64,000 bases of DNA, taken from the sequence record NC_019500.1; one strand, 5' to 3'. The notes under the pieces were generated by a model. The model made no database searches and was not told the origin of the DNA. It was given only the letters and a program-made list of their open reading frames with translations. Position 1 is the stretch's first letter; each line of letters opens with the position of its first letter. The DNA is from Escherichia phage Bp7. The position numbers were made by a program, and so were the translations under genes. Of the stretch, positions 592 to 6,059 are shown piece after piece.

Positions 592-621
592 GTTTACAAC
601 CCTCAGAGGACAGGGTATAAT
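592..621 (+). promoter_or_regulatory. early sigma70-type promoter
   Basis: GTTTAC 592-597, TATAAT 616-621; inverted repeat GAGGACA/TGTCCTC flanks the -10. Confidence 0.4.
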
Positions 622-1288: not shown

Positions 1289-1306
1289 GGAGGAGAGGAG
1301 AATATT

Positions 1307-1843
1307 ATGAGTTTATATGATAACCTTATATCAAATATTGATTGGTTTAAAAACAGTGGTCTTTCCCATGAAACCAATTCAGTTCTTTATAGAATTCGCC
1401 AAGACCTAGGCTATTCAAACGATTTCTTAAGCAGAACATCTAGCCGTGGCTATACTACCAAATTACCTTTTATTTTTGCTTTAGCCGAGGACCTTTCTTT
1501 TGCGGAAGCTTTAGAAATTATTGACGTAAATCTGGGTATTCAACGGGTGGAGTTCGCTGGGCTACGCTATTCGGTATACTCTTTAAATGAACCGAGCGAT
1601 TATAAACAGCTTACTAATGCCGACGATGATTATCATTTAGTATGCTATTTGATGTTAGAAAATGGTGACCATTTTGGTATGGTCGACCGCCGCCCATCTT
1701 ACTCTGATATTAAAAATTACGATAAAGACGAGCTTATTATTTTAGCCAATGAGTATACATCAGAGATTCGAAAACAACAACGGAAGCTTAATCGTTTTAT
1801 TGCTGAATGCCGTGAATATGCTAAAGAGGTTCAAAATGTATAA
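1307..1843 (+). CDS. hypothetical protein (178 aa)
   Basis: ORF with strong GGAGGAGAGGAG RBS. Confidence 0.6.
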   Translation: MSLYDNLISNIDWFKNSGLSHETNSVLYRIRQDLGYSNDFLSRTSSRGYTTKLPFIFALAEDLSFAEALEIIDVNLGIQRVEFAGLRYSVYSLNEPSDYKQLTNADDDYHLVCYLMLENGDHFGMVDRRPSYSDIKNYDKDELIILANEYTSEIRKQQRKLNRFIAECREYAKEVQNV

Positions 1844-2186
1844 GCCTAGTAAAACCGACCCTGGTTACGCATTAGCAGATTATGATATCGCTATTTCTTT
1901 ATTCGCTGGACTTGTCACTGGTACGATTGCCGGATTTGTTGGACTAATTGCTGGTGGAGTCGTTAATGATACGACACAAAACCTATTTGAATTGAACCTT
2001 GCCTGGATTTGGGTTCCTGCTTTAATAGGGTATTTTATCCCATTGGTCTTTGATATTGCCCAAACCAATAAAATAAACAAGCCACGTAAAAAGAGATATG
2101 CTGTATCGATGGCTAATTATAATGAGTATGTAAAACAAACCAAACGTAATGACCTTGAAACCTTTATTAAGGAATGTAAATCATGA
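1836..2186 (+). CDS. small membrane protein (116 aa)
   Basis: ATG at 1836 overlaps upstream stop; two hydrophobic helices; C-terminal tail ...FIKECKS shared with ORF 6059-6646. Confidence 0.5.
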   Translation: MYKPSKTDPGYALADYDIAISLFAGLVTGTIAGFVGLIAGGVVNDTTQNLFELNLAWIWVPALIGYFIPLVFDIAQTNKINKPRKKRYAVSMANYNEYVKQTKRNDLETFIKECKS

Positions 2187-2473
2187 ATAAAATTGAAATC
2201 GAAATCCCAGAACACAACGACGAGAAATCTGCAGAAAAGGCTATCTATGCTCTTCTAAATAAAGTAGATACCATCGAACATGAATGTGAAGCTATTGCCG
2301 ATAAGTATGGTATCCAATTCGGTACTGGTGATTATGGTTCAGGCCGTACATATTATCCTGTCGGTTATGAATGCTCCCAGTGGTTTAAAGATGAAATTGA
2401 AAACAACGGTGGTGAAGTTGAAAATGGCGTCGTTACAGTTGGTGCTTGGATCTCCTCTTCGGCAATGTGCTAA
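2183..2473 (+). CDS. small protein, member 1 of a tandem paralog family (96 aa)
   Basis: Overlapping ATGA start; C-terminus WISSSAMC. Confidence 0.55.
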   Translation: MNKIEIEIPEHNDEKSAEKAIYALLNKVDTIEHECEAIADKYGIQFGTGDYGSGRTYYPVGYECSQWFKDEIENNGGEVENGVVTVGAWISSSAMC

Positions 2474-2482
2474 GGAAACGCT

Positions 2483-2764
2483 ATGATGAATGATAATCAT
2501 AACAACCCAGAGCTTCTGGCTGCAGTAAAAGAAATCCATGAAGCTATTCGTCGTGCTGAGGAAATTGCTGACAAATATGAGACTCATTTTAATATATACC
2601 CTGCTCGCGGTATGGGCGGTGACTATTATTCTCCTGGCGCCTTGAAAGCCGACCTTGCCCACTGGGAAGAATACGGTGGAGCCCAGTACGCTATTGTAAA
2701 CCAGCATGATTACACTACCAGCCTAGAAAATGGCGGTTGGGTGTCCTCTTCTTCTGAATGTTAA
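2483..2764 (+). CDS. small protein, paralog family member 2 (93 aa)
   Basis: C-terminus WVSSSSEC; similar internal ADKY/EEYGG motifs. Confidence 0.55.
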   Translation: MMNDNHNNPELLAAVKEIHEAIRRAEEIADKYETHFNIYPARGMGGDYYSPGALKADLAHWEEYGGAQYAIVNQHDYTTSLENGGWVSSSSEC

Positions 2765-2773
2765 GGAAATAAA

Positions 2774-2986
2774 ATGACTATTGATGAAATCGAAAAACAA
2801 ATCCGCGAATTGGTACGTAAAGGCCAGTCTGTGGCTGACGAAACAGGTGAAGAGTTCCATGTTTCTGGTCGTGGACAATATATTTCTCCAAAGAACCCGG
2901 AATATGATGATTACGAATGGGCCCGTGATGATTACGGTATCCCAGATGGTGAAGGTTTCTGGTTTACATCCTCTATGTCTTGCTAA
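2774..2986 (+). CDS. small protein, paralog family member 3 (70 aa)
   Basis: C-terminus WFTSSMSC. Confidence 0.55.
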   Translation: MTIDEIEKQIRELVRKGQSVADETGEEFHVSGRGQYISPKNPEYDDYEWARDDYGIPDGEGFWFTSSMSC

Positions 2987-2996
2987 GGTGATAAAA

Positions 2997-3221
2997 ATGT
3001 CTAATATTAATGAATTAGAAAAAGCTGCACTTGAACTGGCTGCACTGTATAAGAAAGTAAAAGATATGGCTTCTGCTCAAAGTTTTGGTGTTGAGCTCGA
3101 TGATTATGACGGTGAAGTTCGTCTCGAAGATTGGCTGAATAGCCCGTGTTATGGTGAAGAAGCTGGTCGCACCTTCGTTGCTCAGGCCGATGGTAAAATC
3201 TGGTATCCGAGCTCATGCTAA
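2997..3221 (+). CDS. small protein, paralog family member 4 (74 aa)
   Basis: ATG at 2997 after AAGGTGATAAAA; C-terminus WYPSSC. Confidence 0.5.
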   Translation: MSNINELEKAALELAALYKKVKDMASAQSFGVELDDYDGEVRLEDWLNSPCYGEEAGRTFVAQADGKIWYPSSC

Positions 3222-3442
3222 AATTAAAGAAAAGATACATTCGTAAAATAAATGGTCTTCGCGATTATGCCAAAGGTTGGCCGTTAAGTATTATTATGGC
3301 TGATAGACACCCGCGTTATAATACTGAGATGACTTATTACAAAAAGTACGATTCATATTGTCGGTCTAAAGCAGGTCGTTTAGATGGTTCTTATGAAGAC
3401 TATTTCGGTAAAAAACCTACTCGTATTTCGTTAGGAAAATAA
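3215..3442 (+). CDS. hypothetical protein (75 aa)
   Basis: ORF with ATG overlapping upstream stop. Confidence 0.35.
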   Translation: MLKLKKRYIRKINGLRDYAKGWPLSIIMADRHPRYNTEMTYYKKYDSYCRSKAGRLDGSYEDYFGKKPTRISLGK

Positions 3443-3472
3443 TTTAACCGCATGGATGTGGTAGGAGGACTT

Positions 3473-3802
3473 ATGCATAAAGATTCAGTATTCAAATATC
3501 TTTTGAAAACAGATAAAGAATTCTATATGAATGGGCAAGCTTTCTTGTTCGTTCGCGGTAAACGTGAGATGTTTTACAAATGCGACCTCTCAATGCACCA
3601 TCATATGTATCACACCCATGGTGAGCCTATACTGGGATTCTCTGGCGACGAGACTAAACGTATAGCTATGTACTACGACCATTTTAAGCTCAATGATTGT
3701 GGTGACAACGCTTTGGTCTGGAACCCATCTTGGCGTCGTTGGGATACAGTAGACAACGATAAATTATTTTTAGAATATTGCAGAAGTGATGTACAACTCT
3801 AA
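3473..3802 (+). CDS. hypothetical protein (109 aa)
   Basis: ATG at 3473 preceded by AGGAGG RBS, in frame with track ORF 3452-3802. Confidence 0.5.
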   Translation: MHKDSVFKYLLKTDKEFYMNGQAFLFVRGKREMFYKCDLSMHHHMYHTHGEPILGFSGDETKRIAMYYDHFKLNDCGDNALVWNPSWRRWDTVDNDKLFLEYCRSDVQL

Positions 3803-3845
3803 AAATACGTGTTACTATTACCTTACACAAACATGAGGAGTACAT

Positions 3846-4085
3846 ATGTGGTATTACGCCCCGATGTCCGATAAGTCTAATGAACCGGTACGCATTACTC
3901 GTGCCAAGTTTAAAAAGATTTATGGCTTTGCCTATAAGAAGTCTGATTACGGTGTTCGTTTTGAAGATGCTCACTGTATCAATGACCCTTATGCTGAAGA
4001 AATCTCTAATGAGATAATTCCTATCATTAAGAATAATTCTGATGATATGTGGGAATTGCATAACGATTACGTCGCTGAAATTTAA
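3846..4085 (+). CDS. hypothetical protein (79 aa)
   Basis: ORF with GAGGAG RBS. Confidence 0.5.
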   Translation: MWYYAPMSDKSNEPVRITRAKFKKIYGFAYKKSDYGVRFEDAHCINDPYAEEISNEIIPIIKNNSDDMWELHNDYVAEI

Positions 4086-4104
4086 GTTTACTGAGGAAAA
4101 TATT

Positions 4105-5064
4105 ATGATGTTAGTTATTGGTTCTCGTGCACTGCACCACGCTGGTCTGATTGAAAGTAAGCATATCGAAAATTCTGATTGGGATTTCATTGCCGACCAA
4201 GGCTCATGGAATCACTTTAAAGCTCGGATGTTTGGTGCCCATGTTCCTGTGGATAACCCTGATGTCCAGGCTTTTAAATGCATGTACAACGGTAAAGAAA
4301 CCTATTTTGAAGCATATATCGTTCGTGCTCTGACTAACGTACGAGAAATCACCGGTGAGCTCCAAGATGAAGATTTCACCTCAAGTTATCGTCTCCTGAA
4401 ATATGCTGAAAATCATATTAAAAAGGATCGTCTTACAGGTTTCTATTGGGCTACGCCTGATATCTGTCTTGCTATCAAAACCTCTCATCGTTTCCTGAAG
4501 AATAATCCTTTCTTCCTGAAAACTATGTCCCACATCAAATACCTTCGTAATAAAGGTATCACCCTGAACGAAGAACTCCAGGAAATTATGCTGCAACGTC
4601 AAAAAGAAACGTTGAGCTACAAGCACCCTAAATTGGATGTAAACAAATCATCGTTCTTTAATGATACCATTTATACCCTAGACCACGACTCTATCCATGA
4701 AGCAGTGGCATTGGCAGGGCGCCCTGCATATACCTTTTATATGAAGGAAGGTTCTGAAGTCATGACCTCTCGTGAGAAGTTCGAGGCTTTGCCTGAAGCT
4801 ATTAAACTGGCTGGTGTGTATGAAGAAACTTGTGTCCTGGCACTAGAACGTTCACAGGTTCCTAATGACTTCAATATTTCACCATCATTAAGTTTCTATA
4901 TGGCCCTTGAGAAAGTGTGCACCTCAATCACTTCAGGTTGGTTCCGCACTTATGCATGGGAAAACTACCAAGCTGTGGTTAATATGTACAAGACTTTAGG
5001 TGAAAACGACTACATTGAACGGTTTAAGCGTAACCAACATTTAATTCGTCCTTTCGAAAAATAA
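4105..5064 (+). CDS. hypothetical protein (319 aa)
   Basis: ATG at 4105 preceded by TGAGGAAAATATT RBS module; track ORF 4042 start rejected. Confidence 0.6.
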   Translation: MMLVIGSRALHHAGLIESKHIENSDWDFIADQGSWNHFKARMFGAHVPVDNPDVQAFKCMYNGKETYFEAYIVRALTNVREITGELQDEDFTSSYRLLKYAENHIKKDRLTGFYWATPDICLAIKTSHRFLKNNPFFLKTMSHIKYLRNKGITLNEELQEIMLQRQKETLSYKHPKLDVNKSSFFNDTIYTLDHDSIHEAVALAGRPAYTFYMKEGSEVMTSREKFEALPEAIKLAGVYEETCVLALERSQVPNDFNISPSLSFYMALEKVCTSITSGWFRTYAWENYQAVVNMYKTLGENDYIERFKRNQHLIRPFEK

Positions 5065-5369: not shown

Positions 5370-6059
5370 ATGAACGGTCCAAAAATTTTTAATTCTAAAG
5401 CTCGTGCAGTAGGTGGTTTTGCTCAAGATATCAGTAATGATATGATTAAAAATGAGCCTATGTTCTTTAATTGCGATGCTTATTTTGCTCATAAACATGG
5501 CGGTCCTATTACTCGTAGCTTTATTGAAAACCTGCCTGAAGATTGGCAATGTGGCCCTGATATTGTATTTGATTCCCGTGTACACATGTTAATGCCCGGC
5601 TGGTACCCTGCAATTCCAGGCTTCCACCATGATGATGTACCACGCCCGGATATTCCGGTGGGTCAACACTTTATTACCGCAGGGCAACCTGATTATGATA
5701 ATCCTCGATACCATTCTGAACATATTCTTGGTCTTGTTAACGCTGATGTGTGTCCTACTCATTTTGCAACCGGAACTGCACAGTTCAGTCAGATTCCTGA
5801 AGGCGAACTTATCTATCGCCAGTGGCATAAAGAAGTTCTGGAAAAAATTGAGTCCAATGAATTAACCAAGTGGGATGCTCCTGACCGCACGTTGCTCCAG
5901 TTTGATTGGCAGACATGGCATACAGGTTCTCGTGCAGTAAGTAATGGGTGGCGCTGGTTTGGTCGGGTGTCTCGTAATACAGACCGTGTTAAAAAGATTA
6001 CAAATGAAATCCGCGTTAATGCTCAAGTATATCTGGAATTCCCTATGGAGGGCTGGTAA
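5370..6059 (+). CDS. hypothetical protein (229 aa), His-rich
   Basis: ORF with GTGAGGAAAATATT RBS; no confident family assignment. Confidence 0.6.
   Translation: MNGPKIFNSKARAVGGFAQDISNDMIKNEPMFFNCDAYFAHKHGGPITRSFIENLPEDWQCGPDIVFDSRVHMLMPGWYPAIPGFHHDDVPRPDIPVGQHFITAGQPDYDNPRYHSEHILGLVNADVCPTHFATGTAQFSQIPEGELIYRQWHKEVLEKIESNELTKWDAPDRTLLQFDWQTWHTGSRAVSNGWRWFGRVSRNTDRVKKITNEIRVNAQVYLEFPMEGW

Follow-up and report, generated by a model that had tools for sequence, protein, structure and literature searches.

In the present study, we analysed a stretch of 64,000 nucleotides (nt) from Escherichia phage Bp7 (sequence record NC_019500.1), here called the window, and all positions are counted from its first letter. 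An earlier note, made from the letters alone, had drawn attention to four consecutive small genes (2183-3221) whose products end in a shared tryptophan-serine-cysteine tail. We found that these genes are linked, across many phages, to the gene of a predicted nucleotidyltransferase (NTase), which lies 884 nt 3' of the fourth small gene in the window. The small proteins and the enzyme probably form one functional module, in which the invariant tail would engage the enzyme. In this way, four 'hypothetical proteins' and two domains of unknown function (DUF) are brought together in one defined module. Judged by sequence, the window belongs to the genus Dhakavirus (Straboviridae, Tevenvirinae), a relative of T4: over 1300-4100 it shares 96.7% identity with Shigella phage PSD9 and 92-95% with many JS98/WG01-like phages. 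The genes of the module, with lengths in amino acids (aa), are as follows.

2183..2473, + strand: paralogue 1 (open reading frame 1, ORF1), subtype T1, 96 aa, isoelectric point (pI) 4.35, end AWISSSAMC; phrog_899, E = 2.5e-23
2483..2764, + strand: paralogue 2 (ORF2), subtype T2, 93 aa, pI 4.74, one cysteine, end GWVSSSSEC; phrog_899, E = 2.8e-19
2774..2986, + strand: paralogue 3 (ORF3), subtype T3, 70 aa, pI 4.29, one cysteine, end FWFTSSMSC; phrog_899, E = 3.3e-14
2997..3221, + strand: paralogue 4 (ORF4), subtype T4, 74 aa, ATG at 2997, pI 4.30, shortened tail IWYPSSC; phrog_899, E = 1.4e-9
4105..5064, + strand: partner (NTase) gene, 319 aa, DUF7277 and DUF7275, phrog_2141; the start is possibly the second methionine, at 4108

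Results

Linkage of the small genes to the nucleotidyltransferase gene

A search of viral contigs for family loci with a back-translated AYGMGGTYYP pattern gave 2 loci; hence, the enzyme was used as the seed, and 80 viral loci were fetched and sampled about 6 kb on either side of the enzyme gene. The hidden Markov model (HMM) of the small family found a match in 68 of the 80 loci, and in every case the match preceded the NTase gene by 1-1600 nt in the same orientation. With divergent tail-bearing members included, the small genes were present in 74-75 of the 80 loci in 1-6 copies each, and 15 of 74 loci had a single small gene. The gap between small gene and NTase gene was 1-50 nt in many loci, the two often abutting, and there was one enzyme gene per array. 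The largest array seen, on a 168-kb viral contig (L088, 4362-7367), holds six family genes, a tandem of five before the NTase gene and a sixth after it. All family-seeded contigs that were long enough to judge (L007, L008, L009, L011, L012 and L013) carried the NTase gene just downstream. In an all-against-all census of neighbouring genes, the enzyme cluster was found in 86 loci and three clusters of the small family in 79, 35 and 19 loci; no other gene exceeded 30 loci, and that one reflected T4-like synteny only.

The same pairing occurs in a different context in Aeromonas phage Aes508, where it is located between nrdD and nrdC, and it was also found in Phapecoctavirus SKA64, Pseudomonas phage REC and the Erwinia jumbo phage Hallingskeid, as well as beside distant family members in unrelated metagenomic phage contigs. 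The small family (about 500 representative clusters) and the enzyme are thus widespread, covering such well-studied groups as the RB69-like, JS98-like, phAPEC8-like and Aeromonas T4-like phages. The enzyme was detected in 732 of 50,697 phage records, and in 185,579 bacterial and archaeal species genomes it was found at 5 loci, all on contigs of metagenome-assembled genomes. Exceptions to the pairing were also seen. In one T4-like locus (L037, 4615-5567), seven tRNA genes (Ile, Lys, Glu, Asn, Asp, Met, Gln) stand directly upstream of the NTase gene, at the place where the close relatives L036, L038 and L043 carry the array, and in the clade of L067 and L090 a 179-aa gene stands upstream of the NTase gene instead.

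The small protein family and its tail

All four ORFs match phrog_899, and the matches run up to or near the last position of this 221-position profile (up to 221/221; 218/221 for ORF4). Pairwise identity among the four copies is 25-28%; ORF4 gave no significant match to the other copies in pairwise searches by BLAST and phmmer and was recognised through profiles only. Since a single profile aligns with each of the four as far as its C-terminus, or nearly so, the shared tail is positional and not compositional. The dN/dS ratios (nonsynonymous to synonymous substitutions) against Dhakavirus orthologues were 0.04-0.36 overall (0.04-0.24 for paralogue 1, 0.13-0.30 for paralogue 2, 0.14 for paralogue 3 and 0.05-0.36 for paralogue 4), and the four ORFs are therefore genuine genes under purifying selection. 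All four coding sequences are also annotated in Shigella phage PSD9. In a regular-expression scan of the six-frame ORFs of at least 40 aa, these four were the only ones in the window with tail-type ends.

For the analysis of the tail, a family profile was built from 16 members and searched against 1.84 billion proteins (E <= 1e-3), which yielded 499 representatives of clusters formed at 50% identity. Nearly all of them are 70-110 aa long, and the match extends to the last residue. Tail statistics were taken from 147 inspected representatives. Cysteine was the exact last residue in 138 of the 147, and these Cys-ending proteins carried tryptophan at -7 (135/138), serine, proline or alanine at -5 (135/138), serine at -4 (137/138) and serine at -3 (136/138), with glycine as the most frequent residue at -9 and -8. 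The consensus of the family tail can be written as G-x-W-x-[S/P/A]-S-S-x-x-Cys-COOH, to which ORF1-3 conform exactly; ORF4 has the shorter W-x-P-S-S-C variant that is typical of subtype T4. The claim of four homologous genes with a terminal cysteine tail conserved by position was thus confirmed, both here and across the roughly 500 representatives, and the alternative of a merely compositional likeness does not agree with a profile alignment that runs to or near the C-terminus. The segments coding for the tail in the window are given below.

2447..2470, + strand: tail-coding segment of paralogue 1, W89-C96
2738..2761, + strand: tail-coding segment of paralogue 2, W86-C93; with the junction after it, its DNA nearly matches the T5 tail and junction of IME08, and it is thereby a recombination substrate
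2960..2983, + strand: tail-coding segment of paralogue 3, W63-C70
3201..3218, + strand: tail-coding segment of paralogue 4, W69-C74

Only the terminal cysteine is conserved, and 90 of the 147 representatives have one cysteine in the entire protein. The earlier note had offered modification, metal binding or targeting as roles for this residue. Intramolecular metal binding, of the zinc ribbon or CxxC kind, is unlikely because so many representatives, as well as ORF2 and ORF3, have a single cysteine, and a targeting or lipidation signal is unlikely because the cysteine is the very last residue and stands in no CaaX or lipobox context. The idea of a modification gains some support, by analogy, from the obligate nucleotidyltransferase neighbour, which lies beyond the region that the note had considered.

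Upstream of the tail, the family consensus begins with an amphipathic helix ending in ...EAExIADExG and followed by xFxF; then come a hairpin with the motif aYGMGGTYYP (ARGMGGDYYSP in paralogue 2) and a variable acidic linker rich in tryptophan, aspartate and serine. The median pI of the family is 4.46, and the four proteins of the window lie at 4.3-4.7. Paralogue 4 contains an internal DWLNSPC (nt 3132-3149; DWLNSSC in relatives), followed by YGEE, which is a second copy of the tail motif, and W-x-SS-x-C units are repeated in the linker of many family members (e.g. P0069, P0073 and P0129). These internal repeats suggest that the tail may be a short module capable of duplication.

Subtypes, copy number and recombination

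The variation in copy number that the earlier note proposed to look for in related phages was found: the window has four copies, and most Dhakaviruses have five in the order T1-T2-T5-T3-T4. A 65-aa T5 cassette (MSRELDC...SWVSSSYEC) is absent from the window, from PSD9 and from QL01. The family genes are arranged as T1-T2-T5 in Mosigvirus (RB69-like), T1-T2-T4-T3-T5 in Kanagawavirus, T1-T2-T4 in Serratia phage 4S and T1-T4 in Aeromonas phages, and Phapecoctavirus SKA64 has T2-, T4- and T1-like copies. Orthologues of subtype T4 were seen in 35 loci. Orthologues of one subtype are 32-68% identical across Mosigvirus, Kanagawavirus, Serratia, Aeromonas and Phapecoctavirus phages, whereas paralogues in one genome are only about 25% identical; therefore, the duplications predate the divergence of these phage groups. 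The description of the array as a local gene-family expansion has accordingly to be given up, the copies being old and distinct.

In phage IME08, the DNA of the T2 tail with its following junction and that of the T5 tail with its own agree almost completely over about 35 nt, and the T2/T3 junction of the window has the exact recombinant form (window 2738-2776; compare L002, 4429-4711). Because the tail and junction DNA of T2 and T5 is nearly identical, gain and loss of cassettes can be explained by homologous recombination between the tail-coding repeats.

Predicted fold of the small protein

The AlphaFold2 model of ORF1, made from the 16-sequence alignment, had a predicted local distance difference test value (pLDDT) of 90.8 and a predicted template modelling score of 0.78. 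It consists of a long helix (14-42), a small beta-sheet and a second short helix that bears the conserved internal tryptophan; the tail forms a strand (88-91) and then a one-turn helix ending at Cys96. Searches of the small proteins against Pfam, NCBIfam and PADLOC gave nothing above noise, and a sequence search of the family against the PDB likewise returned noise only. The predicted fold resembled none of the known DNA mimics or anti-defence proteins, and no likeness in fold or sequence to the acidic DNA-mimic anti-restriction proteins Ocr, ArdA and Arn was detected. As modelled, the family consists of phage-specific acidic alpha/beta mini-proteins with a confidently predicted fold and no solved relative.

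The enzyme

An alignment of 37 enzyme sequences, 44-74% identical to the window protein, had 55 invariant columns. G6, S7, D25, D27 and E69 are invariant in all 37 and spell I-G-S-x-A-L...D-x-D...E, the signature of a Pol-beta-type NTase. The AlphaFold2 model of the enzyme had a pLDDT of 90.8, and its nearest PDB structures were nucleotidyltransferases, namely the MenT1 toxin (10.1), ANT(2'') (8.6), TglT/MenT3 (8.6), MenT4 (7.7) and LnuA (7.2). By sequence, the enzyme gave noise only against the PDB. When the 37 homologues were compared with Pfam at E <= 1, no AbiEii/DUF1814 and no PF10127 match was obtained; the matches were DUF7277, DUF7275 and one weak DUF6036 (E = 0.045). The DUF7277/DUF7275 protein is thus predicted, from its model, to be an NTase of the MenT/AbiEii/ANT type, apparently active and with an extra, very conserved helical half. 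A pairing of the tail cysteine with invariant enzyme cysteines was considered as well and was dropped, as C243 is replaced by tyrosine in L009 and L088.

RNA-related neighbours

An RNA ligase gene was found within 6 kb of the module in L009, L047, L048, L058, L082, L012/L013, L091, L102, L105 and L106. Such proximity concerns only about 8-9 of some 110 loci and was not seen in the genus of the window. The contexts with RNA ligase or polynucleotide kinase (Pnk) are listed here.

L009, 6612-9130: RNA ligase/Pnk context
L105, 188-3219: RNA ligase/Pnk context
L106, 1-4465: RNA ligase/Pnk context
L012, 2319-5249: RNA ligase/Pnk context
L102, 372-3133: RNA ligase/Pnk context

In Erwinia phage Hallingskeid, a Pnk gene lies near the module, and one family copy directly follows Pnk, 3.7 kb from the NTase gene. 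The proximity of RNA ligase and Pnk hints at RNA ends as the field of action of the enzyme, although it is a minority pattern. An association of the enzyme with tRNA genes was not supported, since tRNA genes were present in 4 of 45 non-T4-like loci (loci of 7-13 kb), and their proximity in T4-like phages is synteny.

Genomic context of the array

In relatives, the annotated counterpart of the array region belongs to 'e-segB', a T4 block made up of small early accessory genes. The ATG of paralogue 1 overlaps the stop codon of the gene upstream (ATGA), and the copies are separated by the following short junctions.

2471..2485, + strand: junction 1/2, TAAGGAAACGCTATG, stop codon overlapping the Shine-Dalgarno sequence, 9-nt spacer
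2762..2776, + strand: junction 2/3, TAAGGAAATAAAATG; the extra 65-aa T5 cassette of relatives sits here
2984..2999, + strand: junction 3/4, TAAGGTGATAAAAATG, 10-nt spacer, one base longer than the pattern of the earlier note

The description of these junctions as near-identical was right for two of them (2471-2485 and 2762-2776), which fit TAAGGnnAnnnnATG exactly; the third is one base longer, and the pattern is not specific to the array. The arrangement of stop codon, Shine-Dalgarno sequence and ATG was seen 5 times in the window against 0.67 expected, and 3 of the 5 are at unrelated sites, for which reason it was rejected as an array-specific signal. It reflects the compact, probably translationally coupled gene packing of this genome. 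At the other end of the array, the ATG of a 75-aa gene (phrog_7065, 3215-3442) lies within the final codons of paralogue 4 (TCATGCTAA), giving a 7-nt overlap. A longer, TTG-initiated ORF (2781-3221) and a minus-strand ORF (2339-2707) are by-products of the real genes.

A near-consensus promoter-like site lies in an intergenic gap 5' of the gene run.

593..621, + strand: promoter-like site TTTACA-17-TATAAT, 11 of 12 positions

By its sequence, this site could be the early promoter of a polycistronic transcript; the total of promoter-like matches in the region was not above chance. A further near-consensus site (TTTACA-17-TATTAT, 135-163) is also located upstream of the gene run, and no convincing terminator was found between these two sites and the array.

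Directly upstream of the NTase gene lies the gene of a 79-aa protein (phrog_3723, 3846-4085), and downstream that of a 229-aa protein (phrog_1843, 5370-6059). Both are kept in T4-like relatives only (23-30 loci) and fall outside the universal module. In Phapecoctavirus-like contigs, as in Vibrio phage nt-1, SIR2-family genes follow the NTase gene at a distance of 2-3 kb (L100, 5703-5933; L104, 5656-5681; L109, 10519-11316; L110, 10107-10856); this proximity may reflect synteny within the lineage rather than a tie of function. In some records, namely vB_EcoM_005 (MK295203), Klebsiella phage VAC36 and IME540, genes of the block are labelled 'prohead assembly scaffold protein', 'tail completion protein' or 'major capsid protein'. 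These capsid, tail and scaffold labels are almost certainly misannotations.

Discussion

The hydroxyl groups to which enzymes of this fold transfer nucleoside monophosphates belong to RNA 3' ends, to antibiotics or, in the case of MntA, to a protein tyrosine. By analogy, it is possible that the tail of the small proteins is presented to the active site and is itself nucleotidylylated. The tail would then enter the active site as the acceptor, and the nucleotide would go to either of the two invariant serines or, with lower probability, to the terminal cysteine or a tyrosine of the hairpin. The paralogues would be parallel substrates with one shared 'handle' and different acidic bodies, and the modification, early in infection, would act as a switch for their binding to distinct targets, probably those of the host. 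Copy number would change by homologous recombination between the near-identical tail and junction DNA of neighbouring cassettes. We ranked this acceptor mechanism first because the invariant residues are chemically reactive (two serines, the terminal cysteine and a tyrosine), because a position so strictly terminal points to chemistry or to recognition by the active site, and because several conserved paralogues per enzyme resemble substrate or carrier families. The presence of 1-6 small genes per enzyme, with subtypes conserved across genera, is more readily understood for substrates or carriers than for a lone antitoxin. A slightly more doubtful proposal, again by analogy, is that the locus encodes an as yet unrecognised phage protein-modification system, in which the MenT-fold NTase would covalently modify the W-x-S-S-S-x-x-Cys tail of small proteins that serve as its dedicated carriers or effectors. 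Either Ser-O- or Cys-S-nucleotidylylation would be conceivable here, as would a nucleotidylylation-driven elimination with ring closure.

Several observations weigh against a tail that serves the enzyme as partner and acceptor. The NTases of L067 and L090, which have no adjacent family gene, keep nearly all of the invariant residues, and for this reason the conserved surface of the enzyme is not demonstrably dedicated to the partner. Distant homologues of the NTase in actinophages and in Vibrio phage nt-1 also occur without small genes. In the ORF1 model, the tail is packed partly on the domain, so that it may be structural and not a free acceptor. The W-x-P-S-S-C tail of paralogue 4 means that the acceptor geometry must tolerate a deletion of two residues. 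Finally, the enzyme's nearest relatives in structure have tRNA, not proteins, as their substrate.

A second reading is an antitoxin-like role, in which the NTase would be a MenT/AbiEii-like RNA (tRNA 3'-end) enzyme used on host or phage RNA, and the small proteins would block or time its activity. The acidic proteins would bind the electropositive cleft through helix and tail, as in MenA1-MenT1, while their terminal carboxylate, thiol and serine hydroxyls would mimic the end of the substrate or chelate the catalytic metal. We consider this unlikely and keep it as a close second on account of the precedent that MenA1, a 68-aa protein encoded upstream of MenT1, binds via a long helix, obstructing the active site (PMC10435456), MenT1 being also the best structural match. 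The small proteins are likewise acidic with a long N-terminal helix, their genes are upstream and co-directional with gaps of 1-50 nt in many loci, and the nearby RNA ligase and Pnk genes in several contexts would suit an RNA-directed enzyme. However, toxin-antitoxin pairs are normally one to one, and here up to six conserved paralogues accompany one enzyme; a near-absolute invariance of reactive C-terminal residues is unusual for an inhibitory interface; the enzyme has no Pfam AbiEii/DUF1814 match; and the module is essentially absent from bacteria (5 loci in 185,579 species), addiction making little sense in lytic phages. The enzyme need not be the partner at all, if the small proteins are independent effectors, for example nucleic-acid mimics or anti-defence decoys, whose cysteine tail binds a host target or an inter-subunit metal, and if the linkage reflects no more than joint regulation within a block of early accessory genes, or a part in some common pathway, for instance RNA repair. 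Their acidic pI of about 4.4, the position of their genes within e-segB, the hyperplastic early region of T4-like genomes, the Hallingskeid copy that follows Pnk at 3.7 kb from the NTase gene, and the invariant residues kept by NTases that have no adjacent small gene are all in line with this idea. It is nevertheless improbable, as a linkage of about 93%, same-stranded and upstream, persists in very different phages although every other neighbour has turned over completely, and the small proteins have neither a fold similar to known DNA mimics and anti-defence proteins nor a PADLOC or Pfam match.

The paralogues may also be specificity or adaptor subunits that dock on the enzyme by helix and tail, the variable acidic body directing it to RNA or host-protein targets. 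This would account for conserved ends around a variable middle, for subtypes T1, T2 and T4 that are stable across genera and for one enzyme gene per array; but the 15 of 74 loci with one small gene mean that diversity is not required, and we know of no precedent among NTases of this fold. We judge this role slightly less probable still than that of independent effectors. By far the least probable is a scheme of RiPP-like precursors (ribosomally synthesised and post-translationally modified peptides), in which a tail serine would be O-nucleotidylylated, beta-elimination would follow and the terminal cysteine would add to give a C-terminal lanthionine-type ring, the tandem paralogues being parallel precursors for one maturase. 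The S-S-S-x-x-C-COOH spacing would fit the S-x-x-C rings of lanthipeptides, several precursor-like genes precede one enzyme gene, and internal W-x-SS-x-C repeats are present in some members (e.g. P0069 and P0129). Yet the proteins are predicted to be folded, compact alpha/beta domains (pLDDT 90.8) and not leader-core peptides, no LanB/C/M/KC/L, YcaO, radical-SAM or LanD was among the Pfam-annotated neighbours in the 7 contig contexts with flanking genes, and paralogue 4, ending in W-Y-P-S-S-C, lacks the ring spacing.

If the enzyme modifies the tail, the module would be a new kind of viral protein nucleotidylylation system, and phages would deploy a family of nucleotide- or thioether-tagged effectors early in infection. 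Should the small proteins be inhibitors of the enzyme, the module would give lytic phages a MenT-like RNA-tailing activity controlled by multiple antitoxins, and this would bear on how phages manipulate or repair tRNA in conflict with host defences. The strict C-terminal cysteine and the serine pair offer a sharp and cheaply testable handle.

Comparison with known systems

The window proteins are clear members of PHROG phrog_899 and phrog_2141 (both 'unknown function') and of Pfam DUF7277/DUF7275, and these entries state neither a function nor the linkage. A full-text literature search with the DUF and PHROG identifiers, the ORF names of RB69 and phage 31 and C-terminal-cysteine phage proteins gave nothing relevant. 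RlaP (PF10127) has been defined by the proximity of its gene to RNA ligase genes (PMC7824862; PMC12776372). The enzyme described here resembles it as a phage-borne Pol-beta-type NTase whose module lies near RNA ligase genes in several unrelated contigs, but it has no PF10127 match even at E <= 1, and RNA ligase is near in a minority of loci. To our knowledge, no RlaP with Cys-tailed small partners has been reported.

A further likeness is to the MenA1-MenT1 pair of Mycobacterium tuberculosis and, more broadly, to AbiEi/AbiEii (DUF1814): the enzyme keeps the G-S...D-x-D...E residues, with hG[GS]...DxD and the third carboxylate. MenA1, the antitoxin of MenT1, is a 68-aa protein encoded directly upstream whose long helix blocks the active site (PMC10435456), and here, too, the enzyme gene is preceded, on its own strand, by that of a small protein with a long N-terminal helix. 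Unlike MenAT and AbiE, the enzyme has no Pfam AbiEii/DUF1814 match and possesses a large, extremely conserved extra helical C-terminal half, and the small proteins are unrelated to MenA1 and AbiEi, being predicted as folded alpha/beta domains with an invariant cysteine tail. One to six paralogues accompany each enzyme gene, and in place of residence in bacteria the module is essentially phage-only. Judging from the sequences, the arrangement therefore resembles NTase toxin-antitoxin pairs but departs from them in sequence and habitat, with a small partner that has no known relative.

In MntA-HepT (type VII MNT-HEPN) and GlnD-PII, the NTase nucleotidylylates its partner protein on a hydroxyl group. 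The module described here would be similar by analogy, in that a gene for an NTase of the Pol-beta superfamily stands beside a gene for a small partner, and this partner has invariant serine and tyrosine hydroxyls in exposed motifs. The small proteins differ from HEPN and PII, with no Pfam match and no fold match. MntA-HepT and GlnD-PII are taken as the working model for the acceptor explanation, in which the tail of the small proteins would be nucleotidylylated by the enzyme encoded downstream.

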